From a virus (Duplodnaviria; Caudoviricetes), in the IMG/VR virus record IMGVR_UViG_3300028571_000071, positions 1 through 32,072 of that record: 32,072 bases of DNA; one strand, given 5' to 3'. Shown piece after piece: positions 2,822 to 32,072 of the stretch (positions are counted from its first letter, which is position 1; the number at the start of each line of letters is the position of its first letter). A program made the position numbers and the translations under genes. The notes under the pieces are model-generated. The model worked only from the letters and a program-made list of their open reading frames with translations, searched no databases and was not told where the DNA came from.

Positions 2822-3678
2822 ACCGTCCAGAACTCCACGCTGTTGGTTTGCCAGCCGATCTGCGCGAGCGCCGCGTTGACCTGGTCGGTGATAAAGTCGC
2901 CGAAGAAATTGAAGGTGCCGAGGGCCGCATCCGCGAAGCCAAGGCCGATGCCGCCGAAGCTTCCGCCGATGGGCTTGTAGTCCGGGAGCAGCTTCACCGG
3001 CTCGACCCCTGCAGCGAACAGATCCCAGAACTCCTCCTGCTTGACGAATGCCTGTTGGTCGGCCGGGTCGCTTCCGCGCAGCACATAGATCTTGGCCAGC
3101 TCGCGGGAGGCCAGCATCGAGGAGGGTGTGCGCGCAGGCATCTTTCCCGCCCAGGTCCGATACCTGGAAGGAAGGGTGCGGGCCATGAAGATTCCGCGCG
3201 GCCGTGCATATAGATATACGCTGGCAACAAAGAGATCCTTCTCCCACGCCTCGGCCGTCCGGAATGCTTGCGGCCGTCCAGCGTCCGCCACGGCAACGAA
3301 ATCCTCCTCTGTGTCGAGCGAGATGAATGGCGCGGCCTCGCCGCTTTCCCGCCAGCTCCGCTCGCAGACGTCCCCGCTGATCCGGGAGGCGGGATAATCA
3401 TCGGGCATCGTCCAGGCGCGCGGATCTCCGGCTTTCAGGTATGCGACCGAGGCTTCCACATCATTCACGAAACCGGCCACCAGCGTCACCTTCCACTTCC
3501 CTGCGGTTTCATCGGCGACGACCCGCGTTCTCCACGGGTGCGGATATGGCGCTGCAGCGGACGTGCGCGGTCCCTCCAGCGGAGTGCGGCGGCGAATCTC
3601 ATCGATCAGCGCATTGTGCTTCTCCGCGCTGATCCGCATCCGCTTCTTCACCCCGATCTTGTCCATGAGCGCGCTCAT
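2818..3678 (-). CDS. Hypothetical tail protein
   Basis: ATGA-coupled start at 3678; N-terminal ISAEKHNALIDEIRRR resembles VLAEDHNALVRELERR of the upstream gene. Confidence 0.7.
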   Translation of the reverse strand: MSALMDKIGVKKRMRISAEKHNALIDEIRRRTPLEGPRTSAAAPYPHPWRTRVVADETAGKWKVTLVAGFVNDVEASVAYLKAGDPRAWTMPDDYPASRISGDVCERSWRESGEAAPFISLDTEEDFVAVADAGRPQAFRTAEAWEKDLFVASVYLYARPRGIFMARTLPSRYRTWAGKMPARTPSSMLASRELAKIYVLRGSDPADQQAFVKQEEFWDLFAAGVEPVKLLPDYKPIGGSFGGIGLGFADAALGTFNFFGDFITDQVNAALAQIGWQTNSVEFWTV

Positions 3679-4250
3679 GACATTGCCCACCACCATTGAC
3701 GGAATGCGCCGGAGGGTTTGCGCTCCGAGCTGGAGAATCCAAAGTCGAACCGGGCACGCGGCTCAACGCGGCCGTCCTTTTGGGCGATGCCAATCAGCTT
3801 GCGTGCCGTCCAGGCTTTCCACTCCGGCTTCGCGTAAGCCTTCATCTCGGCCTTTTCGATCTGCCAGAAGGAATTCAGCTTCAGCTCCACAAAAAGCCAG
3901 CAATCACCGGCATCGTTGTATTCCAGGATCTCAAGGGGATCGGACTCCTTGTTGGAAATCTTTAGTTCCCCGATCTTGGGCTCGATCCCATTGACCAGGC
4001 CACGCGAGAACCGCACCGCAGGCTTGCCATCCTTTGTTGTGGCGGCGCTCGGCTGCCAGGAGTGCGATACCCCGCTCCCTCCCTCGCTGCTGTAGCTGAT
4101 GATGATCCCGCTATCGAGCTGCCGCGTCCGGACGCCATTCCCTGCCAGGATCTGCCTGCGCTCCAACTCGCGCACCAGGGCATTGTGGTCCTCTGCGAGG
4201 ACAGTGGCCCCCGGCTGGACATACAAATGCTGCAGAGGATCGGAAATCAT
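3675..4250 (-). CDS. Hypothetical tail protein (191 aa)
   Basis: ATGA-coupled ORF in the tail operon. Confidence 0.7.
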   Translation of the reverse strand: MISDPLQHLYVQPGATVLAEDHNALVRELERRQILAGNGVRTRQLDSGIIISYSSEGGSGVSHSWQPSAATTKDGKPAVRFSRGLVNGIEPKIGELKISNKESDPLEILEYNDAGDCWLFVELKLNSFWQIEKAEMKAYAKPEWKAWTARKLIGIAQKDGRVEPRARFDFGFSSSERKPSGAFRQWWWAMS

Positions 4251-13494: not shown

Positions 13495-14787
13495 TTAGGA
13501 GGCCGCTGTCTCCAGGCCGGACACCGCACCGTTGGCCATGAGGCCGATGGTGAAGCGCTCCAGAGCGCGGATGCAGATCTCGTCGGTGGTGAACCCGGCT
13601 TCCTTGCTCGTGTCCATCCGCACGCCGCCACGGGTGGCGAGGTATTGGTAGGACAGGTCGCCGAAGAGGGCGAACACCTTCGAGACGTTCGCGCTCGTCG
13701 AGTAGGCGGGCATGATGTCCACCCAGTTGATCGCGTAGCCGTCGAGCGTCGCTCCACGGGAACCGTTCGCCTGGTAGGGCTTGTCACCGGCGGTGTTGAG
13801 GCCGCTGAGGTGCTGCTCGAAGCTCGGGTGCATGTAGTATGCGCCCATGCCGATCACCGGGGCATCGACCGTGGCCCGGATCGAGCGCAGGTTTGCCAGG
13901 GTGGCGTCGGAATACTTCGTCTTCGTCGAGGCCATCTGGACAACCTTGCTGTTGTCGATGGTCGAGACGCAGAGCCCCTTCACGCTGCCGTTCGCGCCGC
14001 TTCCGGCACCGGTGCCGATGAAGAAGTTGCTGTCTTCCACCAGCGCGAGCTGGCGCGCGCTGTAGCGGGCGACGAACTGCCCGATGGCGATGATCGAGTC
14101 CTCATCCAGTTCGGAGGGCAGGCGGACGAGACCGCCGAACTTCTCGGGCGTGAATGTGACCCAGCCGACCTGCGGGCTCTTCTCGGTGACGGTGCCGCTC
14201 GCGGCGATCAGGCCGAAGGCCGGGTCGGTCGTGAGCTTGGGCAGCTTCACTGTGCCCGCGCCGAGCGGGAACACCGTGCCGAAGCGACGGGCCGCGCCGT
14301 AGGCCGAGACCAGCTCGACCACCTGCGCGTTGTATTGCACGGGCAGCGGGATGTCCGAGCTGCTCAGCGCGGTCTTGGCCTCGACCCCGAGGATGTCCTT
14401 GACCATGCCGTCGATGCGGTCTCCGGCGAGTTGCCCTCCCTTGAGGCCAGCGACGAGTGCGAGGCCGCCGAGGTGGCGGGCGCAATCTTCGGTGACTTCA
14501 CCCTTGCGGGGAGCCGTGCGGGTCGTGGCGGCAAGGTTCGCCTTGCGCAGCGCCTGCGTGTCGGCGGCGAGCTTGTCGATCTCGCCCTTCAGCGAGGCGA
14601 TGTCTCCGCCGTTTTTCTCAATCGCCGCGATCTTCGCTTCGAGGTCTTTCGACTTCTGCGCGATGGCCTCGACGCTTCCGAGCACTTTCGCCTGGAATTC
14701 GTTTTCGTTCAGGGTTCCGCCGCCGGTTCCGCCGCCGTTGTCCGGGGCAAGAAACAGGCAGCCCAATTTGGTGCTGATGCGTTTCAT
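13495..14787 (-). CDS. Major capsid protein, HK97 family, with N-terminal coiled-coil delta domain
   Basis: Motifs KFGGLVRLPSELDEDS and ALFGDLS, GFTTDEICIRALERF; ATGA-coupled start at 14787. Confidence 0.92.
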   Translation of the reverse strand: MKRISTKLGCLFLAPDNGGGTGGGTLNENEFQAKVLGSVEAIAQKSKDLEAKIAAIEKNGGDIASLKGEIDKLAADTQALRKANLAATTRTAPRKGEVTEDCARHLGGLALVAGLKGGQLAGDRIDGMVKDILGVEAKTALSSSDIPLPVQYNAQVVELVSAYGAARRFGTVFPLGAGTVKLPKLTTDPAFGLIAASGTVTEKSPQVGWVTFTPEKFGGLVRLPSELDEDSIIAIGQFVARYSARQLALVEDSNFFIGTGAGSGANGSVKGLCVSTIDNSKVVQMASTKTKYSDATLANLRSIRATVDAPVIGMGAYYMHPSFEQHLSGLNTAGDKPYQANGSRGATLDGYAINWVDIMPAYSTSANVSKVFALFGDLSYQYLATRGGVRMDTSKEAGFTTDEICIRALERFTIGLMANGAVSGLETAAS

Positions 14788-15473
14788 AGATTTGTAATTT
14801 GATTTTCGAGTTTCCCGAGCCATGCCCGACGCTGTTCCCTCTTCCGTGTCGCGGCAGCGTCTTCCTCTGCGGCACGGGCGGTTTTTTGGGTGTCTGCGGA
14901 AATGCTCTCTGCCAGGAGGTCGATGTCGCCGTCGGCGATCACCCCGTCCTTGTAGGCCCGAGCGAGCGCGGCAGGGTTCGCGCCGATGATGCAGGCGCTC
15001 AGCTCGATCTGCTCTTGCTCAAGATATACGCACGACACGCGCTTGGCTGTCTCCGCGTCCAGGCCCAGTTCCGCGATCTGCGCGGCCAGATCCGCCCCGC
15101 CATTTTTGTAGCGGTCGGCATATTTCGTGGGCAGGAACCCGACCGACACCGCCTTCAGGTGCCCGGCCTGCGTCATCGCAAATCCGATCTTCGCAATCGG
15201 GTTCGCCTCCGGCTCCCACTTCACCACCTCGATCAGCTTGCGGCCCTCCACCCGGAAGTCCACCACCGAGCCCAGCAGCTTCTCAATCGTCGAGTAGTCG
15301 TGGCTGTCCACAAACGGCGCGTTTTTCGCAAAGTGGTTGAACCGCCAGCCATCCGCCCGGATGATCTCCCGGTAGTGGTCGAGGGTTTCGTCGCTGGCGA
15401 CGTATTCCACGAGCCCCCCGGCGGCGTCGAGAACCCGGATCTCCGGGAAAATGGTGCGTTTGAGTTGATTCAT
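14784..15473 (-). CDS. Prohead protease (HK97/S78 family)
   Basis: ASDETLD, DSHD, LKAVSVGF, IELSAC..GANP motifs. Confidence 0.9.
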   Translation of the reverse strand: MNQLKRTIFPEIRVLDAAGGLVEYVASDETLDHYREIIRADGWRFNHFAKNAPFVDSHDYSTIEKLLGSVVDFRVEGRKLIEVVKWEPEANPIAKIGFAMTQAGHLKAVSVGFLPTKYADRYKNGGADLAAQIAELGLDAETAKRVSCVYLEQEQIELSACIIGANPAALARAYKDGVIADGDIDLLAESISADTQKTARAAEEDAAATRKREQRRAWLGKLENQITNL

Positions 15474-15604
15474 AGGTTCGAGCCGGTTGGCATTGCCATT
15501 GCAAAGCCGTTGCACCGCCCGGTGGCGGCGTTTTCTTTTTCAAGTGGGGAATTCACCCCATACGGAGCCTTCGGCCCCGAATTTTGGCGTTTTTGCGCGT
15601 TCAT
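15470..15604 (-). CDS. 44-aa bridging ORF between portal and protease
   Basis: ATGA overlaps at both ends; hand-translated MNAQKRQNSG...PTGSNL. Confidence 0.4.
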   Translation of the reverse strand: MNAQKRQNSGPKAPYGVNSPLEKENAATGRCNGFAMAMPTGSNL

Positions 15605-21957: not shown

Positions 21958-22206
21958 ATGGACTACAATCTTCCCGCATCCTTCGGAAATCATGGCGCTG
22001 ACATCCTCGCAAAGGCGGGCTGGATCGACGCCAGCTTGATAAAACAAGGCGCACTCCGGGTCCGATGGACCGACAAGGGCCGCGCCCGCGCCGCTCAACT
22101 CCTCGACCTTCTCGCCGAGTTGGAAGAGCACGGTCAATCCCTGGACTGCGAGACGCTCGAAACGGTTTACGCGATTTGCGGCATGAACGATCCGCGAACG
22201 CCGTAG
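21958..22206 (+). CDS. Hypothetical 82-aa protein, opposite to the late arm
   Basis: Phage-like codon usage; winged-helix-like VRWTDKGRARAAQLL. Confidence 0.55.
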   Translation: MDYNLPASFGNHGADILAKAGWIDASLIKQGALRVRWTDKGRARAAQLLDLLAELEEHGQSLDCETLETVYAICGMNDPRTP

Positions 22207-22389
22207 GAGATCCGCTCCAAAATCCGCACGCTCACGCAGAGTAGCCGAAACATCGTCCCATTTTTCAGCTTTCAGCTTTCCGCCTTCAGCTTTATGCTTT
22301 GGCTGCGTCTTGGTGGTGGCCGCGTTCATGTGGCAGCAACACTGCCACGACGACAAAAAACCCGTAGGGCTAGACCGGAATCACCGGAC

Positions 22390-22503
22390 TCAGCCGATGA
22401 AAATGCAGATCAGCAAAAAGCGCGAGGAGGAGACTTCCACATCCGCCCGCGCGCCGCAGAGCAGAAGAATTGAGAGGCAGACTGTCGTCAGGAGCGTTTT
22501 CAT
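22390..22503 (-). CDS. 37-aa hydrophobic peptide coupled to the repressor-like gene
   Basis: ATGA overlap at 22500-22503; MKTLLTTVCLSILLLCGARADVEVSSSRFLLICIFIG. Confidence 0.45.
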   Translation of the reverse strand: MKTLLTTVCLSILLLCGARADVEVSSSRFLLICIFIG

Positions 22504-22856
22504 TTGTCAGGTTTTCTTTTCCCCCGCTTGCCTTTCGGCTTCTCCACAGGCTTCTGCACGTGGGCACCAGAAGCTGATGACAAATTTTCAATGTGCCCAA
22601 TCGCCACTTTGTTCCCCGTCTGGTTGATCGTCACCTTTTTCGGACGACCTCCTTTTCCTGCGCGTGACGGCGCGGCTTTCAAGCTGGCAGAAACACGGAT
22701 ATTCATTTCCTCAAGTCGCTTGTAAACGGCGTCACGGATAAATGTAGAGCGATCCGAAAAGCCGAGCTTTGGAAAAGCTGCATCAATTTCATCGCGAAAC
22801 TTTTCATCCATCATCACTAAAACTCCGCGCTGGTCGATTGATCTGACGTTCGGCAT
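22500..22856 (-). CDS. Ribbon-helix-helix regulator, probable repressor
   Basis: GVLVMMDEKFRDEID...SDRSTFIRDAV CopG/NikR-like pattern; divergent from the early operon. Confidence 0.75.
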   Translation of the reverse strand: MPNVRSIDQRGVLVMMDEKFRDEIDAAFPKLGFSDRSTFIRDAVYKRLEEMNIRVSASLKAAPSRAGKGGRPKKVTINQTGNKVAIGHIENLSSASGAHVQKPVEKPKGKRGKRKPDK

Positions 22857-22934
22857 GGGTGCATATAAAATCTTTTTTCATTTTCCCGCAATTTTTTTCT
22901 TGCGTGGTGTATATGCTGGGCATATAGCGAGTTT
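22857..22934. promoter_or_regulatory. Back-to-back promoters and operator repeats of the lysis/lysogeny switch
   Basis: Rightward TTGCGT-17-TATAGC (22900-22928); leftward TTGCGG-18-TATATG (22891-22862); three GKGYATAT repeats. Confidence 0.6.
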
Positions 22935-23129
22935 ATGCAAACAAAACAACGCCACCGGGGAGCACTTTCCAAAAGCAGCTCAAAAGCAGTCCTGGTGTAT
23001 TTCCCGAAACACCAGATGCCGTTGATCGATGAGGCCGTGAACATCACGGACACCGACCGATCGAAATTTATTCGCGGGGCAGTCCGTCAAGCACTCGACC
23101 GTCTCAGCCTTCCAGTCCGCGCCGCCTGA
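22935..23129 (+). CDS. Ribbon-helix-helix regulator in the Ner/Cro position
   Basis: AVLVYFP...IDEAV...TDRSKFIRGAVRQAL. Confidence 0.8.
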   Translation: MQTKQRHRGALSKSSSKAVLVYFPKHQMPLIDEAVNITDTDRSKFIRGAVRQALDRLSLPVRAA

Positions 23130-23189
23130 TCACCTTCGCCACGGGGCGGGCCATCCAATGCGCCCCACCACTTTTCAAAACCACAAACA

Positions 23190-23531
23190 ATGAGCGACAC
23201 ACAACCTTCCTTCGACTGGCTCATTCCAACGACAAAAGAACTCCTGCGGCCCGAAGAATGCGCCCGCTACCTCGACCGCTCCCTTGATTTTGTGGATGCC
23301 ATGATTGACGAGGGGAAACTGGAATGGATGGCCCCCACCGGGCGCAAGGTCGAACGTAAGAGGATCACACGCCGCAGCCTGCTCCTCCTCATCCTGGAGC
23401 AATTCCGTGCCGATCCTGAACTCTGGTTCGAGCGCTACGCCGCCCTCCTCCACCGCTGCTCAGCTCACCAGCTCACCCGCCTCATCGCCGAGGCCACCCG
23501 CCTCCGCTCAAAAAAACTCACCACACTATGA
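23190..23531 (+). CDS. Excisionase/MerR-like HTH DNA-binding protein
   Basis: LLRPEECARYLDRS..FV..MIDEGKL...RITRRSL. Confidence 0.75.
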   Translation: MSDTQPSFDWLIPTTKELLRPEECARYLDRSLDFVDAMIDEGKLEWMAPTGRKVERKRITRRSLLLLILEQFRADPELWFERYAALLHRCSAHQLTRLIAEATRLRSKKLTTL

Positions 23532-23749
23532 AAACCACAACCGCACATGGGAAAAAACCCGAACAAAAATACCAAGCATCAGCGAAGGCTGTCGCCGACT
23601 ACATCCGGCGACTGTGCCGTGTTCATGGCGTCAACCCAAACGTCCTCTCAAACATCGAAATCGAGCGCGGATCGTGGGCCAGGAATACCAGCGCGGGCCA
23701 AGGAATGACCGCATCCGAAGCGGCAGAAAAGATGGAGGCCTCGAAATGA
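23528..23749 (+). CDS. Hypothetical early protein (73 aa)
   Basis: ATGA coupling at both ends. Confidence 0.6.
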   Translation: MKTTTAHGKKPEQKYQASAKAVADYIRRLCRVHGVNPNVLSNIEIERGSWARNTSAGQGMTASEAAEKMEASK

Positions 23750-24546
23750 AGACCCTCCAGCCCACCTCCACCGGGAATATTTCGGCAATGACCATCCCCC
23801 AGCTCGCCGAGGCGGGCAAGGCCCTCGACCGCGCGGGCGACCTCCATGAGAACACAGCAGGCATCTGCCGCCTCCTTCACGGTCTCGTGCTCATCGAGGC
23901 CAAGCGCAAACTGGAGCACGGAGCCTTCATGCCTTGGGTGAAGGAACATTTCCCGAACTCGTATCGGGCAGCAGCACAGCGCATGCAGGCTGGCAATGAT
24001 TTTCTTGCCACCGTCAGCGACAAGAAACTGGCCAAGAAGCTCAAATGTGCAGGCCCCTGCACATTTGACGCCCAGAGCCTGCTCCTCGGGGATCTTGCAA
24101 CCAACCTGCCCGAGATCAGCGGTGCCCAGCTCGACATGAGCAACCCGGTCGTGGAGGCCGCGAGCAAATACATCGGCAACCGCTCCTGGACCCAGCTCCT
24201 GCTCGACCTCGGCGACGCCCGCGAAAACAACGGAGGCAAGCGAACGCGGCTCAACGGAACGAAGCGGCGCACCGACCCGGAAAAGGAATTCGACGACGCG
24301 CTCAAAAAGGCGATGGACTGGTATAAGCTCGGCCTCGTCAGCCTCAAGGAAAACTACCTCCACAGCAAACGCCGCTGGGAAGTGCTCCCCGAGGTGGAAC
24401 TCGCCAACGTCGCCGACCTCGTCAAGCTCTGGGCCAAAAAACTCGACGACATCTGCCGCGCCCGGCACATCGTCCCCAGCAAGATCCGCGATTGGGACAA
24501 AAACTTGTCGCCCGCAGAACTCGGCCTCTCGGAGGACGGGAAATGA
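23746..24546 (+). CDS. DUF3102-like protein
   Basis: GLVLIEAKRKLEHGAFMPWVKEHF..SYRAAAQRMQ; typical just upstream of Mu-like transposases. Confidence 0.75.
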   Translation: MKTLQPTSTGNISAMTIPQLAEAGKALDRAGDLHENTAGICRLLHGLVLIEAKRKLEHGAFMPWVKEHFPNSYRAAAQRMQAGNDFLATVSDKKLAKKLKCAGPCTFDAQSLLLGDLATNLPEISGAQLDMSNPVVEAASKYIGNRSWTQLLLDLGDARENNGGKRTRLNGTKRRTDPEKEFDDALKKAMDWYKLGLVSLKENYLHSKRRWEVLPEVELANVADLVKLWAKKLDDICRARHIVPSKIRDWDKNLSPAELGLSEDGK

Positions 24547-26396
24547 CACTCGACGCCTACCAGCGCGAGAGGATCGGAACGCTGCGCCCGATCATGGAGG
24601 CACTCGAAGCCGCCGACCACCTGACCAGCGGACTCGCCGCCTTCTCAGCCCGCATCGGCTTTTCCAAGCAACGGCTGGAAATGCTCTTCTACTCCTGGCA
24701 GCGCGCGGGCGACGACGCACTCATCGACAAGCGCAAGCTCCCGAAGCCAAAGAAGAGCGCGGCAGATACCCTCCCCATCAGCGACGCCGAGCGCGCAGTC
24801 CTGCGCCGCCTCGTCGCGCAATGCGGCTCCATGCTCTACGGCATCGAAGCCTTCGCCGATGATCCCGTCTGCTCGCCCGAGATCCGCACCCTCATCATTT
24901 CGCGCCGCTCGCGCCGCAACTATCCCAAGGCCCTGCTGCGCGCCGCCCGTGTCACCGGCGAAGAGAGCGACCTCGCCCGGGGGCCGAAGCGGTTCAACCT
25001 GCACGTCGCCACGCAATACCGCGACAATGTCTGGGTGGACTCAGCCGGGGTCGAGCATCCGCTCACTGGCGGCGACCTCTTCGAGTGCGACGACATGAGC
25101 CTCAACCAGCCCTTCTGGTATGAGTGGCCCTACGGCGGGGACGAACTCTCCGACATGTTCGGCGTCCGCCTCGGCCGCCAGATGCTCGCCTGCATCGACA
25201 CCGCCACCGCCCGCTGGATCGGCTTCGATCTCATCGGTCGGGTCCGCGACGCCTACCGCGCCGAAGACATCGTCCGTTTCCTCGGCTCCATCTGCCAGTT
25301 CAACGGCATCCCGCGCCACGGGTTCCGCCTGGAGCGCGGCATCTGGAAATCCAAGGCCGTGCGCGGAGTCAAGGGCGTGAACGACGACAAGGAAAAGCAG
25401 GTCGTCGCCTCGATCTCCGACGCTGTCGCCCTCCACTACGTCCACAGCCCAAAAGCCAAAGGCGTCATCGAAGGCAGCTTCGACATGCTCCAGACCATCC
25501 TCTCCCTCGACGGCATCACCATCGGGCGCGAACGCGGAGAATACGAGAAGGCCACCGCCGCCATGCTCAAATGCACAGCCGGCCGCATGCATCCGAAAAA
25601 CGCTGGCTTCCCGCACATCAGCGATATCGCCGAGCGCGTCAACGGTGCGATGGAGAAGTTCAACCTCCGCAATAAAATGGGCCGCGTCATCCAGGGCGTG
25701 CCCATGGAAAACTTCGCTCGCGACATCGAGGCCCAGCCGCTCGCCGCGCTGCCCGACCAGCAGGCTTACCTCTTCCAGCCCTACCGCGAGATCCGGCCCA
25801 TCACCGGCGCCCACGTCCGCTGCAAGGTCGAGCACTACAACCATACCTTCTCCTTCGCCGTTCCCGGTGAACTTGCCCACCTCGGGCGCGGCTACCGGCT
25901 CCTCGTCTGCTTCGATCCCGCCAACCCGCATGCCGGAGCCCGCGTCTTCGACGCCGAGAGCAGCGACAGCAACCGCCTCGACTACGAGAGCAAGCACGGC
26001 CAGAGCTACGGCATCATCCCCTTCGAGCCCGACGCGCCCCAGCTCGACTACTCGGACCGCGCCAAGAACCGCACCAAAGGCGGATACGCCGGAGCCGTCC
26101 GCTCCGAGTTCCGCAACCTCGGTCTCCAGCAGGGCACGAACATTTCCCGAGTCAGCGACGGGCGCGGCAACTCCACCCAGATCGCACGCGGCGCACAGAT
26201 CGCCGCTATGGAAAATCTCCCAGCCGGTGACCCGCGCGCTGCAGAGGCCCTGCAGGCCCGCCGCACGTTCGTGGAATCCGGCGACCGCGCCACGGCCCGC
26301 AAGCTCCGCAAGGTCTCCAGCGCGGCCCTCCTGGACGACGACGAAAACGAGATGCCTGGCGCGCCTTCGCGCATCAGCTCCGAAGCCCTCCTTTAG
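24543..26396 (+). CDS. MuA-like DDE transposase (617 aa)
   Basis: FECDD, CIDTAT, GIP..FRLERG, PKAKGVIEGSF, VCFDP; followed by a MuB-like ATPase. Confidence 0.88.
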   Translation: MTLDAYQRERIGTLRPIMEALEAADHLTSGLAAFSARIGFSKQRLEMLFYSWQRAGDDALIDKRKLPKPKKSAADTLPISDAERAVLRRLVAQCGSMLYGIEAFADDPVCSPEIRTLIISRRSRRNYPKALLRAARVTGEESDLARGPKRFNLHVATQYRDNVWVDSAGVEHPLTGGDLFECDDMSLNQPFWYEWPYGGDELSDMFGVRLGRQMLACIDTATARWIGFDLIGRVRDAYRAEDIVRFLGSICQFNGIPRHGFRLERGIWKSKAVRGVKGVNDDKEKQVVASISDAVALHYVHSPKAKGVIEGSFDMLQTILSLDGITIGRERGEYEKATAAMLKCTAGRMHPKNAGFPHISDIAERVNGAMEKFNLRNKMGRVIQGVPMENFARDIEAQPLAALPDQQAYLFQPYREIRPITGAHVRCKVEHYNHTFSFAVPGELAHLGRGYRLLVCFDPANPHAGARVFDAESSDSNRLDYESKHGQSYGIIPFEPDAPQLDYSDRAKNRTKGGYAGAVRSEFRNLGLQQGTNISRVSDGRGNSTQIARGAQIAAMENLPAGDPRAAEALQARRTFVESGDRATARKLRKVSSAALLDDDENEMPGAPSRISSEALL

Positions 26397-26411
26397 CACC
26401 ACCACCACTTT

Positions 26412-27581
26412 ATGAACAAAGACACCACCACGTCACCCGAACCCGAAGACAACAATCAACCCGAGCCGCAGGCCAATTCTGGCAACAACGTGCGCGCGTC
26501 CTGGAACTTCTCGCTCCACGACATCCGCATGAATCTCGCGCATTGCTCACACGACGCGAAGGAGATCCTGATCGCCTGTTTCCTGTGGTGCATCGACGCG
26601 AAGCACCCGGTCAGCCGTCCGGAGTTCGCGAAGGCCATCGACTTCGACCCGTCCACGATCTACCGGATCTACTCGGGCAAATACATCAACGCCACGACAC
26701 GCGAGCGCCTGGAAGTCCCGCCGAAAATGGTGGATGCGTCGCGCGCCTGGCTGGCCCGGCAGCGCAAAGCCTACACGCCCATCGGAGAGTTCATCCTCAC
26801 ACCGACCGCCGAGCGGATCTTCCACGCCTGCAACCTGGCACGGGAATCCAAGACGCCGGTCTTCCTTTGGGGCCGCTCGCACATCGGGAAGACCTGGGCG
26901 CTCGAAAAATTCGCCGCCGATAACAACCACGGCCGCACGATCTACGTCCGCATGAAAGCGGCCACCGGCCTGGGCGGGATGGTGAAGCGGATCAACGAGC
27001 GCTGCGGAAATTCCGACAAGGCGAACACGGCGGATTCGATTGACCGCATCAAGCGCGCCCTCTCGCCCGACACGCTGCTGATCCTGGACGAGCTGCACCT
27101 CCTCCAATACACCTACCGGCTCAATTCCTTCTTCGCCTGTCTGGAAGTGATCCGGGAGATTTACGACGAGGTCGGCTGCGGGATGCTGCTCTGCGGCACG
27201 GAACTCCTCCTGGAGAAAATGCGCGGCGGCACCCACGGCGAGATGGAGCAGCTCCTGCGGCGCGGGGTCCATAAGTTCCACCTGCCGAAGATGCCGAGCA
27301 AGGACGACATCACCGCGATCCTCGGCCACTACGGGGTCGAGTTTCCGGCGAAGAAGAAAACCCTCAGCCTGATCGTGGACGGCGAGCACATCAACGAGAT
27401 CCCGTTCGACCTGCTGCGCCAGCTGGCCAAGGACAACGGCATCAAGGCGATCACCGAGCGCCTGCGCTATGCGGAGAAGATCGCCGCCAAGGCCCGCACG
27501 TTCACGACGATGGCCCACTTCGTGGAAGCCCACGTCCGCATCCAGTCCAACGGCGCAGTCGACAACTCGGATTGGGATTGA
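26412..27581 (+). CDS. MuB-like AAA+ transposition ATPase
   Basis: N-terminal HTH (STIYRIYSGKY), Walker A GRSHIGKT, Walker B LLILDE, LLCG. Confidence 0.92.
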   Translation: MNKDTTTSPEPEDNNQPEPQANSGNNVRASWNFSLHDIRMNLAHCSHDAKEILIACFLWCIDAKHPVSRPEFAKAIDFDPSTIYRIYSGKYINATTRERLEVPPKMVDASRAWLARQRKAYTPIGEFILTPTAERIFHACNLARESKTPVFLWGRSHIGKTWALEKFAADNNHGRTIYVRMKAATGLGGMVKRINERCGNSDKANTADSIDRIKRALSPDTLLILDELHLLQYTYRLNSFFACLEVIREIYDEVGCGMLLCGTELLLEKMRGGTHGEMEQLLRRGVHKFHLPKMPSKDDITAILGHYGVEFPAKKKTLSLIVDGEHINEIPFDLLRQLAKDNGIKAITERLRYAEKIAAKARTFTTMAHFVEAHVRIQSNGAVDNSDWD

Positions 27582-27586
27582 GCGCC

Positions 27587-27682
27587 ATGAACTACCAGCC
27601 AATCACCGCCGCCGAAATCCTCGCGCTGCGCAAAGCACTACCGGCCGTCGTCGCCTGGCTCCGCGCAAGGGAGGGGAAATGA
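27587..27682 (+). CDS. 31-aa ORF
   Basis: MNYQPITAAEILALRKALPAVVAWLRAREGK; ATGA-coupled to the next gene. Confidence 0.5.
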   Translation: MNYQPITAAEILALRKALPAVVAWLRAREGK

Positions 27683-28011
27683 TCGCGCTCCACATAGAAT
27701 CCCAGGACATCACCGACGCGATCTGCACCGTGTCACTCATGGGGCCGCACGTCGAATCCGCCGCCGAGGCGGCATTCATCCAGTGGCTGCGCGAACGCGG
27801 CTACAACTGCGACAAAGCCGAGGATTGGGAAACGCCCCGCGAGCTTTGCGAACGGCTGCACATCGGCTGTTCCTTCGTCTCCCAGGCACTCCGCCGCCCA
27901 AACTGCCCGAAGCCGCTCGACATCTCGCGCGGCCCCACCGGCCGCATCACCTACCTCCGCAGCACACCGGCCCTAGACGCCTTCCTCACAAAACATAAGT
28001 CCCATTCCTAA
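27679..28011 (+). CDS. Hypothetical protein with C-terminal HTH-like motif
   Basis: RBS GGAGGGG before ATG; TPRELCERLHIG.SFVSQAL. Confidence 0.65.
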   Translation: MIALHIESQDITDAICTVSLMGPHVESAAEAAFIQWLRERGYNCDKAEDWETPRELCERLHIGCSFVSQALRRPNCPKPLDISRGPTGRITYLRSTPALDAFLTKHKSHS

Positions 28012-28027
28012 TTCCAAATTCCAAATT

Positions 28028-28303
28028 ATGAAAAAAACACCACCTGCCGCCACAAGCGGCCCGAACATGACCCGCGAATACCGCAAGGAACTTCGCGCAC
28101 TCGAAACCCAGATCCGCCGCGCCTCGCGCGACCAGATCCGCCACCACCGCGCCACCCAGCGCGCAATCGCCCGCATCGAAAACGAAGCCGTCAAGCAGAT
28201 CCGCGCCATCAAGCGCGAGTCCGCCAAGATCGACAAAGGCACCCTCAAGCAGATCGCCGCATTCGCCAAACGCCGCGACATCCTCATCGGGAGGCTCAGC
28301 TAA
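28028..28303 (+). CDS. Basic coiled-coil protein (91 aa)
   Basis: ORF with phage codon usage; TAATG coupling. Confidence 0.7.
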   Translation: MKKTPPAATSGPNMTREYRKELRALETQIRRASRDQIRHHRATQRAIARIENEAVKQIRAIKRESAKIDKGTLKQIAAFAKRRDILIGRLS

Positions 28304-28782
28304 TGAACCTCGCGCCTACCGTTGATCGCGGCCTCGAAATCCGCGCCCAGATCGAGCAGCTCAAAGAAGAACTCTCCCTCATCGAGAGCACGCTCGAACT
28401 CGCCGCCCGCAAGGGCGAGCAAATCGACCTCGAAGACCCCGACCGCGAAGGCCGCCAGTTCCTCGCCAGGGGCACAGAGGCCATCGTCCCCGTCGTCCTC
28501 ACCGCAGACATCATCCAGGGCACATTCGCGGACGGCTCCCAGGCCCATACGAAGATCGCCACGGCCGCCGTCGGAAGGCTCGCCGAGTTCTACTGGCCCA
28601 CCACCACATGGAAGCTCCTGGCAAAATCCGGAAAGGCATTCCGCATCGAAGCCGCCGCCATCCTCGGAGCCGCCGCACCGGCCCTGATCACCGCCGCCAT
28701 CGCCCGCGACAAAAACGGGATCCCGAAATCCCAGATCAAAGTCGAGTGGAACCGCGCCGAAGAACTGCCAACCGCCAACTGA
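28303..28782 (+). CDS. Hypothetical early protein (159 aa)
   Basis: Coupled ORF; N-terminal coiled coil. Confidence 0.75.
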   Translation: MNLAPTVDRGLEIRAQIEQLKEELSLIESTLELAARKGEQIDLEDPDREGRQFLARGTEAIVPVVLTADIIQGTFADGSQAHTKIATAAVGRLAEFYWPTTTWKLLAKSGKAFRIEAAAILGAAAPALITAAIARDKNGIPKSQIKVEWNRAEELPTAN

Positions 28783-28801
28783 AAACCGCCAACTTCTTCC
28801 T

Positions 28802-28984
28802 ATGACCATCGAGATCACGATCCGCGAGATCTACCAGCTCATGTTTTGCGTCTATTCGCTCGGGCTCCTCACCGTGCTCGTCGGCTACACGCTCATCCGG
28901 ATCTGGCACGATTCGCGCGAGAACCGCCGCCGCCGCGAGCAGTTCCGCATCCACCGCCGCACCCCCTACGGCATCCGCGTATGA
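28802..28984 (+). CDS. Small single-TM membrane protein
   Basis: Hydrophobic stretch followed by an Arg-rich tail. Confidence 0.6.
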   Translation: MTIEITIREIYQLMFCVYSLGLLTVLVGYTLIRIWHDSRENRRRREQFRIHRRTPYGIRV

Positions 28985-29103
28985 CCCTCCGCGCCCTCAA
29001 CTGTCTCCTGCTGCTCATCGCCCTGCGCGAGGGGCAGCGGGGACGTTGCTGGAGGCCACGTCATTCCTAATTCCACATTCCACATTTCGCATTTTTCCAC
29101 CCC

Positions 29104-29838
29104 ATGCTAACTCCCAAACAAGAACAGAAATACTGGCGGACGTGGGCGAAGATCCTCGCCTGCCAGGGATGGGCTCACGAGACGAGCGCGAAAAAGGACC
29201 AGCGCCGCTATGCCACGCACATCATGTGCGGGCTCAAGAGTGAGGATGGCACCGCCCGGTCCATGAAGTCTTTCGTGAACCGTGATTTCTCGCGCTGGCT
29301 GGCCGCTACAGCTCACTTGTGCGACGAGGTGGAGGTCAGAGACCGGGATCGCGAAAACTCGGTGTGGCGCATCCGGCAGGATGCCAGGGCAGCGGGGCTC
29401 AGCGACGAATATCTTGCCGCCATCGCCCGCGATGTCTTCGGAACGAACGACTGGTGCGGGCTACCAGGTGATCAACTCATCAAGTTCCGGAACACCATCC
29501 ATAACCGCGCCGGATCTCATACTGGACACGACACCCGCACCGAGGCACCCGCGCAACCCCGGCGCAAATACACGCTCGACGGCGGCAGCAGATCTTTCAG
29601 TTCCCCCGCACAAGACTCTACCACGCTAAAGGAGGAGCGGCCTATGACAACACGGCGGATAAAGCCCGCCACCGTGACAGGTCCGATCCCTGTTGTGCCT
29701 CCCTCCCGGCCGCTTGGCTACTGCATGCACGCGGTCAATCCTCCCACGGCCGCGCCATCGCCCGCGCGCGGCCTTCCTGCCGACATCATCATCAACGAGG
29801 TCGCCCACTTCGCCGATCCGGAGGACGAGCCGTTCTGA
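29104..29838 (+). CDS. Hypothetical protein, weakly Mu gp16/GemA-like
   Basis: RY...CGLKS...SMKSF and GLSDEYL..I...FG...L..DQL patterns; position in the early region. Confidence 0.55.
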   Translation: MLTPKQEQKYWRTWAKILACQGWAHETSAKKDQRRYATHIMCGLKSEDGTARSMKSFVNRDFSRWLAATAHLCDEVEVRDRDRENSVWRIRQDARAAGLSDEYLAAIARDVFGTNDWCGLPGDQLIKFRNTIHNRAGSHTGHDTRTEAPAQPRRKYTLDGGSRSFSSPAQDSTTLKEERPMTTRRIKPATVTGPIPVVPPSRPLGYCMHAVNPPTAAPSPARGLPADIIINEVAHFADPEDEPF

Positions 29839-29841
29839 ATT

Positions 29842-30195
29842 ATGGATGCCGCCGCGCTCGCAACACAGATGGACCTATGGCTCCGCACCCAGCCGCGCTG
29901 GGTCAGCGGTGCGGAGATCTGTGAGCGCTTTGGCGTCAACGAGCGCCGCCTGCGCTCAGCTAACGGCAAGCCCGGCCTCCTGTCCTTAAACTGTGTGAGC
30001 AGCTCCACCCAGGGGTTCAAGCACATCCGGTTCGCAGCCACGCAGGAATTTTTCGAGTGCGACAAAGAAGACCGTAAACACTGCATCTCCCGATACCTCA
30101 CCCTGCGAGCACGCCGCAATGCCTGGCGGAACGAGCGCACCGGCAAGCGCCCCGAGTTCCGCGAACTCCACACCGGCCAACTGGTTTTCGTATGA
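29842..30195 (+). CDS. Winged-HTH protein, candidate transcription regulator
   Basis: WVSGAEICERFGVNERRLR...SSSTQGF. Confidence 0.65.
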   Translation: MDAAALATQMDLWLRTQPRWVSGAEICERFGVNERRLRSANGKPGLLSLNCVSSSTQGFKHIRFAATQEFFECDKEDRKHCISRYLTLRARRNAWRNERTGKRPEFRELHTGQLVFV

Positions 30196-30383
30196 ATCGC
30201 AAACCCTCCCGCGAATGGACCCGCCGACTCTGTCCCTCCTGCGCCCACCGCGTGATACAGACCGAGTTCGGCTGGTTCTGCCGATCCGTCCTATGCAGGA
30301 GATCATGGTTCTCGAAGAAAAAACCGCCGAACGCTGCCGGTCAGAAATCGCTGGCTTTCGCGGAACCTCCGTTTGAAAGCTGA
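30192..30383 (+). CDS. Small Cys-rich (zinc-ribbon-like) protein ending inside attC-like site 1
   Basis: CPSC...WFC..LC; ATGA-coupled. Confidence 0.55.
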   Translation: MNRKPSREWTRRLCPSCAHRVIQTEFGWFCRSVLCRRSWFSKKKPPNAAGQKSLAFAEPPFES

Positions 30384-30446
30384 TATGACGCAACCATCCA
30401 TCTCAACACCCACTGGCCAGCGATTTCCTGGACCGGCTTGTTGGGC
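30326..30446 (-). mobile_element. attC-like recombination site 1 (121 bp)
   Basis: Minus strand: R'' GCCCAAC-AAGCC-L'' GGTCCAGG-AAATCGCTGGC...GCCAGCGATT-TCTGACC-GGCAGC-R' GTTCGGC; two extrahelical bases. Confidence 0.85.
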
Positions 30447-30485
30447 AGGCCGGAAAAGAGCGTCGAAAAAAGATGAAAATAGTTC

Positions 30486-30514
30486 TTGCAATCAAGACAA
30501 GGTTTGAATAAAGT
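30486..30514 (+). promoter_or_regulatory. Sigma70-like promoter inside cassette A
   Basis: TTGCAA-17-TAAAGT with an A-rich upstream tract, 9 nt before ATG 30524. Confidence 0.65.
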
Positions 30515-30523
30515 AAGGGCGTC

Positions 30524-30805
30524 ATGAAAAACAACACCAACACACGCTCAGAAAAATACGCAGCCCACAAATCCGCCGCCGCTTTCCTGCTGGCTCAACC
30601 CGCTACCACCTCACGGAAAAAAGCGATCCTCCTCGTGACAAACGCAGAGGGTCGGCTCATGGCCGACATCGAAAACGGTCGCCAGTGGGGTGGCCGCCGT
30701 GGAGTCAAGCAGAACGGCGGAAAAGCCATCGCCAAGACCGAAGAGACGGTCGCCGCGATGAAAACCCTCAACCTCAACGCCGCCGCGTGGTTCTCCCAGG
30801 CATGA
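30524..30805 (+). CDS. Hypothetical protein (93 aa), cassette A gene 1
   Basis: Follows its own promoter; ATGA-coupled to the next gene. Confidence 0.7.
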   Translation: MKNNTNTRSEKYAAHKSAAAFLLAQPATTSRKKAILLVTNAEGRLMADIENGRQWGGRRGVKQNGGKAIAKTEETVAAMKTLNLNAAAWFSQA

Positions 30806-31050
30806 ACTACCGGGATGCTTACGACCGCGCCGACTGGACGAAAACGGATGTCCAGTTGGCGCGAAAATTCGGAGTCACCAAGCAGGCAATCCAAGCTGCG
30901 CGTAGGGTCAGGGGCATCGCCCCGACTCCGCACGGAGGATTAAGGAAAGGCGCTGGCAGAAAGCCATCCAAAAAGCGCCGTAAAAAGAAATGCGCACCAC
31001 GGCGGCCCAACGGCGCGGATGAGAGGCAGCTACCGGAGGAAAAACTATGA
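30802..31050 (+). CDS. HTH protein with GGLRKGAGRKP basic motif, cassette A gene 2
   Basis: TDVQLARKFGVTKQAIQAARR; stop lies in the loop of site 2. Confidence 0.7.
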   Translation: MNYRDAYDRADWTKTDVQLARKFGVTKQAIQAARRVRGIAPTPHGGLRKGAGRKPSKKRRKKKCAPRRPNGADERQLPEEKL

Positions 31051-31125
31051 TCGAAAAACGGTATGAAAGCGGGCGAGGACCGAAAGAGAACAGCGGTAGC
31101 TGTTCTCTCGATCCGATGGTTCGGC
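31005..31125 (-). mobile_element. attC-like recombination site 2 (121 bp)
   Basis: Minus strand: R'' GCCGAAC-CATCG-GAT(C)GAGAG(A)ACAGCTACCG...CGGTAGCTGCCTCTCATCCG-CGCC-R' GTTGGGC. Confidence 0.85.
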
Positions 31126-31388
31126 AATCTTCGCGGCAACTCTCTGTGCGGGTAGTCCCTGCGCTGTTCCGCGCCGTCAATCGCCTGTGCGAGCGTGACG
31201 GAATCACCCTCACGGCATTCGTGACGGCCTGCGTGTGGTTCGAGGTGCGCCGCCGCGCCCCGGCCTGCCACGACTGCCAACCCGGAGCGGCAACCCCGGC
31301 ACTCAACCAGCATGGCGACTGTGCGACGTGCGACGGTCTGGGTGTTGTTTTGCCGAACGCTGGGCTATGCGACCGGGACCGCTCATAA
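31047..31388 (+). CDS. RHH-like domain plus CxxC...CxxC zinc finger, cassette B gene
   Basis: QLSVRV.PALFRAVNRLCERDGITLTAFV; CHDC, CATCDG; starts in site 2, stops in site 3. Confidence 0.65.
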   Translation: MIEKRYESGRGPKENSGSCSLDPMVRQSSRQLSVRVVPALFRAVNRLCERDGITLTAFVTACVWFEVRRRAPACHDCQPGAATPALNQHGDCATCDGLGVVLPNAGLCDRDRS

Positions 31389-31451
31389 TAGACTCCGCCA
31401 TGCAAAACAACCTTCCCAGCGGTCCCGGTTCGCATCAGCCACTTGTTGGCC
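31352..31451 (-). mobile_element. attC-like recombination site 3 (100 bp)
   Basis: Minus strand: R'' GGCCAAC-AAGTG-GCT(G)ATGCGA(A)CCGGGACCGCT...AGCGGTCCCGGTCGCATAGCC-CAGC-R' GTTCGGC. Confidence 0.85.
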
Positions 31452-32072
31452 CTCTTCCGGTTCCATACTACGACGACGGTCTCATCACGATCTTCTGTGG
31501 GGACTCCCGCCGTATCGTGCCAACGCTGCCGAAGTTCGACCTGCTGCTCACCGACCCACCGTATGGCATCAACATCGCCAAGACGGGCAAGTTAGGCAAG
31601 GCGCGGTATGAACCCGCCGAATGGGACGCGAAGCAGCCGGAGCCGTGGGAACTGCAAATGCTCATCTCAAGCTGCAAGGAATCCATCATCTGGGGCGGCA
31701 ATTACTACGAGCAACTCCGCCGTGCCACATGCTGGCTGGTGTGGGACAAGAAAAACGACGGCCTATCCTTCGCCGATGCAGAACTCGCCTGGACAAACCT
31801 GCGCCGCGCCGTGCGCATGTTCCGGTGGATGTGGCATGGCTTAAAGGAAGGTGGCCCCATCAAACGCGTCCACCCCACGCAAAAGCCGGTGCAACTGATG
31901 GAGTGGTGCATCGGCAAGGCCAACAAGCCGCAAAGTCTCCTCGACCCCTACATGGGCAGCGGATCGTCACTGATCGCCTGCCAGCAACTCGGCATCCGCG
32001 CCGTGGGCATCGACATGCACGAGCCCTACTGCGCTGCCGCCGTCGAACGGCTCCGCGATAATCGGGCCAACG
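31400..32072 (+). CDS. Orphan N6-A/N4-C DNA methyltransferase (beta class), cassette C gene, stop beyond the window
   Basis: Hand-translated: LLTDPPYG, WDK, HPTQKPV.LM, LDPYMGSGSS; missing from the ORF track because it has no stop. Confidence 0.92.
   Translation, partial: MQNNLPSGPGSHQPLVGPLPVPYYDDGLITIFCGDSRRIVPTLPKFDLLLTDPPYGINIAKTGKLGKARYEPAEWDAKQPEPWELQMLISSCKESIIWGGNYYEQLRRATCWLVWDKKNDGLSFADAELAWTNLRRAVRMFRWMWHGLKEGGPIKRVHPTQKPVQLMEWCIGKANKPQSLLDPYMGSGSSLIACQQLGIRAVGIDMHEPYCAAAVERLRDNRAN
32064..32072 (-). mobile_element. Core (R') of a probable fourth attC-like site, truncated by the window end
   Basis: GGGCCAAC is the exact reverse complement of GTTGGCCC at 31445-31452; AAC is in frame with the MTase. 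Confidence 0.6.

Follow-up and report, generated by a model that had tools for sequence, protein, structure and literature searches.

An integron at the end of a Mu-like phage contig, with bottom-strand cassette genes and crossover triplets that are often read as in-frame asparagine codons

The stretch of DNA analysed here, hereafter called the window, comprises 32,072 nt from a virus of the class Caudoviricetes (positions 1 to 32,072 of IMG/VR record IMGVR_UViG_3300028571_000071). Its right end carries an array of gene cassettes separated by recombination sites of the integron attC type (Table 1). The window ends one base past the crossover triplet of the fourth AAC site. Contig L001, 100% identical to the window over 4673 bases, extends about 2.8 kb beyond this end and alone contains the remainder of site 4, a fourth cassette, an attI-like site and an integrase gene, intI. 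The presence of intI and attI just past the window end accounts for the layout of the array. The deduced L001 integrase was assigned as an integron integrase (NCBIfam TIGR02249, 276 bits vs a cut-off of 265), its catalytic residues R132, K157, H257, R260, H283 and Y292 being invariant in 5 sequences, and the attI-like site was recognized by an AAC conserved 32–47 nt before intI in the relatives. The same arrangement (array, attI, intI) is repeated in contigs L393 and L394. A reading as a cluster of attC sites lacking an integron integrase (CALIN) was rejected, as intI follows the array in L001, L393 and L394.

Table 1. Features of the cassette array and the genes leading into it (window coordinates unless L001 is given)
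Feature	Position	Strand	Remarks
Mu-like transposase and AAA transposition ATPase	24492..27581	+	head of the + strand early gene run preceding the array
63-codon ORF upstream of the distal site	30192..30383	+	AAC as Asn, tail AAGQKSLAFAEPPFES; doubtful gene
attC site 1 (distal)	30326..30446	+ (= bottom strand)	AAC 30330-30332; extra bases G, C on right arm; GTT 30440-30442
Cassette 1 (679 bp)	30332..31010	+	site 1 hairpin, 40-codon leader ORF 30385-30507, two genes
Cassette 1 genes	30524-30805; 30802-31050	+	93 aa; 82 aa, HTH-like
attC site 2	31005..31125	+	AAC 31009; ATGA stop/start overlap 31047-31050 in loop; GTT 31119-31121
Cassette 2 (347 bp)	31011..31357	+	gene D 31047-31388, 113 aa
attC site 3	31352..31451	+	AAC 31356; stop 31386-31388; ATG 31400 (or 31367); GTT 31445-31447
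Cassette 3 (713 bp)	31358..32070	+	orphan N6/N4 DNA methyltransferase from 31400 past window end; 230 aa in L001
attC site 4	from 32065..32072 in window; remainder L001:4666-4766	+	window stops within it
Cassette 4 (737 bp)	L001, between site 4 and attI	+	79-aa gene and HTH_3 gene
attI-like site	AAC at L001:5407	+	fifth junction, before intI
intI	L001:5443-6420	+	325-aa integrase, 773 nt past window end, outside window

Recombination occurs within the 5'-AAC-3' of the attC bottom strand, and attC sites are built from R and L boxes, an unpaired central spacer and extra-helical bases, as set out in the available text of Nivina et al. (2016, PMC5027507). By this anatomy, the + strand of the window is the recombinogenic bottom strand and AAC is the crossover triplet. 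R and L boxes, central spacer and extra-helical bases were present in all four sites, which read on the + strand as AAC, 8–9 nt, a stem and loop, a stem with two extra bases, 8 nt and GTT. All four have one orientation (+), the first extra base being G, G, C and A. A reading of the letters and open reading frames (ORFs) alone, here termed the sequence-only reading, had taken these junctions for recombination sites; they do have the geometry of integron attC sites, read on the bottom strand. A detector for AAC, 8–9 nt, stem, extra base, 8 nt and GTT found exactly three complete sites in the window, at the positions in Table 1, with scores of 15–16, vs 0 to 0.125 matches per 32 kb in shuffled windows at a score of ≥10; it misses some sites, e.g. 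those seen by eye in L209 near 5668 and in L212 near 5587. A repeat search revealed no repeat family joining the four sites, which do have their structure in common, and an Rfam scan of positions 22000–32072 gave no family and two chance-level matches.

The sequence-only reading had also held that stop and start codons are built into these sites, and translation confirmed each codon on which it relied. All four upstream ORFs read the crossover AAC as an in-frame Asn (KPP-N at 30330, RRP-N at 31009, VLP-N at 31356 and NRA-N at 32069), the three complete ones stop within the next site (30383, 31050 and 31388), an ATG follows in each loop (30385, 31047 as an ATGA overlap, and 31400), and the genes starting at 31047 and 31400 read the GTT core as an in-frame Val. 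At site 4 in L001, the methyltransferase ends as N-AERSHT before its stop codon, with another ATGA overlap. The ORFs 30192–30383 and 30385–30507 scored as non-coding in a Markov model (about -6 to -9); the former had no family match in the profile searches, and the latter ends after 40 aa and does not have the GTT core in frame. Since the first upstream ORF scores as non-coding, three credible genes are left among the 4 in-frame cases. Alternative in-frame ATGs exist at 31367 for the methyltransferase gene and at 31116 for the gene starting at 31047, and public gene calls use both. At all five junctions of the array, a stop in frame 0 (that in which AAC encodes Asn) lies within 7–17 codons, and one in frame 1 within 3–84 codons; in frame 2, two junctions are without any stop for 200 codons. 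As agreement in 4 of 4 cases has a chance of about 1 in 81 and is weak alone, support was drawn from larger site sets.

Gene frames in these sets were called with a 3-periodic Markov model, which was right for 120 of 120 methyltransferase segments (partly in its training set) and 32 of 37 short annotated genes; a codon log-odds classifier was dropped, having mixed up frames 0 and 2. Set 1, collected with a motif covering the right arm only, came from 124 viral and 139 bacterial loci and contained 216 viral, 141 bacterial and 20 control sites. Set 2, collected with a motif modelled on the sites of the window and scored with the earlier-trained model, contained 51 sites in 23 of 121 loci. Viral loci anchored on methyltransferase genes yielded 8 sites in 79 loci, too few for a test. 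In set 1, 173 of the 179 viral sites with a clear upstream gene had it on the bottom strand, vs 9 of 49 such bacterial sites and none of 12 annotated controls (viral vs bacterial, Fisher p 2e-29; with one site per locus, 82/87 vs 3/36); in set 2, this was true of all 33 clear upstream genes. The 173 inverted genes of set 1 were distributed over frames 0 (61), 1 (24) and 2 (88). Reading through the crossover was confined to frame 0 (56/61, of which 54 stop in the site, vs 0/24 and 0/88 in frames 1 and 2; 44 loci), and 84 of the 88 frame-2 genes stop on a TAA formed by the core itself (T-AA-C). The 33 genes of set 2 comprised 26 frame-0 read-throughs, 2 frame-2 read-throughs and 5 with their own stop. 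Hence 82 of the 84 read-throughs in phage loci (56/56 and 26/28) use the Asn frame, as do 18 of 20 in the close relatives described below; read-through at inverted attC sites is thus locked to one frame. Of the viral sites, 155 of 216 contained a frame-0 stop, compared with 65 of 141 bacterial ones (set 2, 43/51), and a frame-2 stop was rarer in the viral (129/216) than in the bacterial sites (109/141). Among the 80 genes that read GTT in frame, 47 had a usable in-site ATG, compared with 22 of 160 control frames.

Evidence for shuffling came from contigs of 8 of 22 listed sequencing runs (6 possible sources of the window DNA). A joint skipping exactly 713 nt, i.e. the methyltransferase cassette, was found in runs X5, X6 and X7. 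Each of the five junctions is also a point where foreign sequence is joined to the array, on AAC itself or a few bases away, including in the unflagged runs X14 and X17; such sequence joins just before AAC at site 1 in X14, as foreign upstream ends at site 2 in X3, X6, X7, X8 and X17, and exactly at AAC in attI (in runs and also in contigs L395 and L411). Contigs in 5 of the 8 runs also stop at L001:4673, and other loose ends lie away from any site, e.g. at 3857, 4391, 4601, 5042 and 5499. In L395, intI and the end of the methyltransferase gene are identical to those of L001 with a different cassette between them, and the methyltransferase tail is EKGHL. The 713-nt skip and the replaced slot-4 cassette represent cassette loss and gain at the AAC/GTT core as in an integron, observed in contigs with short joint sides. 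Tails vary in a similar way. In 11 of 12 public records of gene D, whose tail AGLCDRDRS is supplied in the window by site 3, N at the crossover is followed by 9 different tails; the close methyltransferase records have N in 7 of 7 and 5 tails, some short tails in public records possibly being contig ends. Two homologues of the helix-turn-helix (HTH)-like gene (30802–31050) also have N and another tail, and one stops earlier. Conversely, one tail was found behind three different genes (L118, L135 and L145). The tails are 1 to more than 20 residues long and have no common motif.

In a quick, midpoint-rooted tree of 80 integrase rows, the phage integrases formed a clade of 18 with a Shimodaira-Hasegawa-like approximate likelihood ratio (SH-aLRT) of 100; 10 of these had inverted arrays, one had a single top-strand cassette and 7 lacked scorable sites, while the rows outside the clade comprised 8 classical, 1 inverted and 53 unscored. 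Hand sorting of 27 junctions from nine related contigs gave 18 frame-0 read-throughs, 2 in another frame, 6 genes with their own stop and 1 unclear case. The attI site encodes a 10-codon tail, NSVLNKPGSD, with variants; the pattern NSV(L/I)NKP.SD is conserved in close relatives, and the stop of this tail lies 3 nt before, or overlaps, the intI ATG in the closest ones. A scan with the attI motif returned 18 loci, 11 of them judged to be chance, 6 with intI (one being the window's own contig and two the same array) and one attI without intI. In this last locus (L362, motif at 3544–3562, - strand), a gene labelled by eye as acyl-carrier-protein-like reads into attI with an NSVLNK tail, and no intI follows. 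Single top-strand cassettes occur in two relatives, L395 and L401. The latter, beside a 93% identical integrase, carries a 157-aa gene (L401:222–695, - strand) with a signal-peptide-like start and classical polarity, and this may be a cassette captured from bacteria. In L213/L390, the gene of a distant viral integrase (33%) has an attC-like site directly after its 3' end and not before it.

By its integrase, attI, attC sites and cassette exchange this element is an integron. It is not a CALIN, and it lacks the classical layout of top-strand genes facing away from intI, since all cassette genes in the window and L001 are on the bottom strand. We consider it probable that it represents a complete phage integron with bottom-strand genes, its own integrase likely exchanging cassettes at AAC and the shared Asn frame likely providing read-through genes with the stop of the next site. 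The 3' ends of the genes meet the crossover because the genes lie on the recombinogenic bottom strand, facing attI and intI. A cassette would begin with the C of one AAC and finish with the AA of the following one, and would thus have the hairpin, often with a start codon, at its front and no protected 3' end. Two endings would then be safe: i) a stop belonging to the gene itself, no later than the core and often T-AA, or ii) reading through in the Asn frame into sites enriched for stops. A shared reading frame would make the cassettes interchangeable, and the tails are most likely tolerated by-products of this frame convention and not functional modules. Transcription is likely to come from the phage early operon running through the array into intI, in place of the cassette promoter Pc of classical integrons. 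The newest cassette would therefore be the last in the transcript, adjoining intI, and since the attI tail stops 3 nt before the intI ATG, translation of intI may be coupled to it. A sigma-70 scan of L001:2600–7453, with a model that may not fit the host, gave no site in intI or attI and 2 sites (1.1 expected) in cassette 4, and a gammaproteobacterial LexA box, covering this LexA type only, had no match in L001 (1.6 expected). By analogy with ORF-11 and short ORFs in attC (see below), translational coupling and protection from termination are plausible. It is possible, although we lean against it, that the clade has reversed the logic of the integron altogether: the array would sit in a lytic early operon, every junction including attI would be a translated stop/start joint in the Asn frame, shuffling would rewrite the tails, and the flow of ribosomes from the newest cassette would set integrase output. 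In this extended form, even cassettes with genes of their own or with opposite-strand genes could carry an open passenger frame from the loop ATG to attI, as in L001 and L395.

Several observations weigh against the probable reading. The integrase lies outside the window, on the identical contig; the starts and tails are predictions from sequence; and gene frames were called by an in-house model with the accuracy on short genes given above. Site 2 is predicted to fold poorly into the recombinogenic form (core pairing probability 0.06). The 713-nt skip joints are supported on their short side by 25 nt, flagged as often foreign, and come from runs of two studies (X5, X6 and X7) that are possible sources of the window. 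The frame rule has exceptions in P0131, a gene D record frameshifted to the end WRTSA, and in L208, L212:4420, L543 and L571; in L208, AAC is in frame 2 and the resident gene ends 3 codons later. Of the 173 inverted genes in set 1, 117 do not run past the crossover, and 24 loci mix both types of ending, so that a gene in frame 0 can come to lie ahead of one of the sites that lack a stop in that frame (61/216). Sites of one locus or one cassette family depend on each other, so the p-values are overstated. The proposal of the sequence-only reading that the last gene of a cassette lacks a stop and takes its tail from the cassette downstream holds in part: the same protein does occur with different tails, but 117 of 173 genes in set 1, 5 of 33 in set 2 and the last gene before attI in L001 have their own stop. 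Among the 120 best methyltransferase homologues, the N-tail motif was present in only 5, one of them doubtful.

It is unlikely that the tails and loop leaders are functional, position-dependent modules that tune stability, partner binding or coupling, including that of IntI. The wide variety of tails on an unchanged body, the overlap of stop and start codons at site 2, site 4 and the L212 attI, the enrichment of in-site ATGs and the attI tail kept in close relatives are consistent with such modules. However, the range of tail lengths with no shared motif argues against them, as do the many methyltransferase homologues (not counted) that have neither leader nor tail, and binding of the integrase accounts for the conservation of attI. 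A filter at cassette birth, whereby IntI uses a chance AAC near the end of a gene, tolerable products survive and sites do not co-adapt, is somewhat unlikely to be the whole explanation of the frame bias. Distal junctions do resemble such events and break the frame, as in L208, and the residues before N are varied, but by itself the filter gives no reason for frame 0 over frames 1 or 2 and leaves unexplained why viral sites have gained frame-0 stops and lost frame-2 stops relative to bacterial ones. Such a filter can act together with the shared Asn frame.

The variants might also derive from homologous recombination, co-occurring phages or assembly chimeras, the integrase being idle and the array fixed. 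The use of contigs only, the short joint sides and the loose ends away from any site agree with this, and a divergent allele of gene D shows that related phages are present. Against it, the sites have no shared repeat family, the breakpoints fall on AAC at all five junctions and also in runs X14 and X17, which are not flagged as sources, both breakpoints of L395 lie within one assembled contig, and intI is intact. We regard this explanation as highly unlikely and retain exchange by the phage's own integrase as the probable one.

The integron field starts from the premise that bottom-strand selectivity points promoterless genes away from intI, under Pc. The phage array resembles classical integrons in attC anatomy and in the orientation of its sites to intI, which is that of the annotated L214, L215 and L217. 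In classical integrons, the promoterless genes face away from intI under Pc and their ends abut their own R'' (PMC5027507, available text), whereas in the phage array the genes face attI and their ends abut the crossover. The sequence-only reading had likewise set these junctions apart from classical integrons, and in annotated classical integrons the genes do end on the other strand, either ahead of their own site or within it. Phage genomes are known to carry attC arrays, often with orphan DNA methyltransferase cassettes, and some temperate phages have complete integrons (Qi et al. 2023, PMC9892861). The arrays and methyltransferase cassettes are similar to those described here, but bottom-strand genes and a frame rule are not described in the available text of that work, whose supplements may bear on polarity. 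Four of its records (TJE1, Vibrio Va_90-11-286_p16, Shewanella M16-3 and P1 L-II) were checked and are classical: an annotated top-strand gene ends ≤41 nt from its own R'' core at 15 of 20 sites, and the other 5 have no close annotated end. In contrast to these records, the L001 integrase falls in a clade of its own, and intI runs in the same direction as the array. In TJE1 (L218:318–1071), the annotated methyltransferase extends 26 nt into its own attC before it stops, and the gene behind it begins immediately past the core.

Precedents exist for translation across integron sites. ORF-11 and ORF-18 of attI1 and short ORFs in attC cross the crossover and take their stop from the neighbouring cassette, and translation through attC hairpins helps downstream expression (PMC8876359, available text). 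Whereas ORF-11 and ORF-18 are short top-strand leader peptides, full cassette proteins would take a stop and tail in the phage array, at both attC and attI. Synthetic attC sites within coding sequence have been recombined and translated (Nivina et al. 2020, PMC7439510, available text); those were engineered linkers for domain shuffling, whereas the phage sites are natural, lie at gene ends and include one in-frame fusion. In the latter (L212:4420), an 81-codon gene crosses the site in frame 2 and is fused in frame to a methyltransferase-like ORF (350 aa in total), a natural attC-spanning fusion. A literature search, reaching neither subscription journals nor supplements, gave no account of bottom-strand or frame-locked phage cassettes. 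The new elements are the phage integrase clade, the attI-encoded tails abutting intI and shuffling in populations. The same recombination chemistry would serve the opposite gene layout in phages, with a clade of phage integrases and a short attI, and the phage cassette pool would be silent under a bacterial Pc and vice versa, which bears on whether cassettes are traded between phages and bacteria. Natural attC sites are predicted to be translated, a property found otherwise only as an engineered design in the literature searched. This arrangement would also account for the numerous small proteins of phages that are alike up to a C-terminal P/A/S-N and differ only beyond it, and for assemblies breaking at these junctions.

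As for the cassette genes, the methyltransferase of cassette 3 matched PF01555 (E 1e-16), and the label of the HTH-like gene is based on PF13404 in its homologue P0141. The gene D product has a YlcI/YnfO-like N-terminal part (NF041551, E 0.0014, below cut-off) and a Cys-rich C-terminal part; it is regarded as a real gene because 7 of 10 changes in its divergent allele, counted by hand, fall at third codon positions. PADLOC gave no defence-system match beyond the methyltransferase and weak HTH matches. A profile-free search of representatives returned 1114 proteins at 1e-30, which came without gene context. A small gene followed by a small DNA-binding-like gene, behind an A+T-rich stretch, was observed in three cassettes (window 30524–31050, L001:4907–5395 and L395:223–813), among which a sigma-70-like promoter was found solely at L001:4814–4842. 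L001:4690–5439 and L395:121–921 contain a non-protein-like open frame running from the loop ATG to attI in the Asn frame and spanning the whole slot-4 cassette; it overlies same-strand genes in L001 and opposite-strand genes in L395, and is absent from cassette 1 and from L401. In a post hoc comparison this frame stayed open in 12 of 2000 (L001) and 219 of 1000 (L395) synonymous recodings, and with the intergenic sequence also shuffled in 0 of 2000 and 20 of 1000, respectively.

The window itself, which does not include the phage ends, belongs to a Mu-like transposable phage, with a DDE transposase, an AAA ATPase and virion genes (portal, terminase, head and tail matches). The virion genes are on the - strand, and the transposase and ATPase genes, on the + strand, lead into the array. 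The two transposition genes matched phrog_310 (E 5e-6, weak) and phrog_296 (E 6e-29), with a Pfam AAA_22/TniB match, and a Mu-type ATPase was present in 4 of 5 records tested, one being the window's own contig. A pyrimidine-rich direct repeat of 25 nt (92%) occurs at 28003–28027 and 29062–29086, just upstream of the early-region genes at 28028 and 29104. Two overlapping ORFs (13495–15515, - strand) contain the matches to head protease and major head protein, for which the PHROG models are fused.

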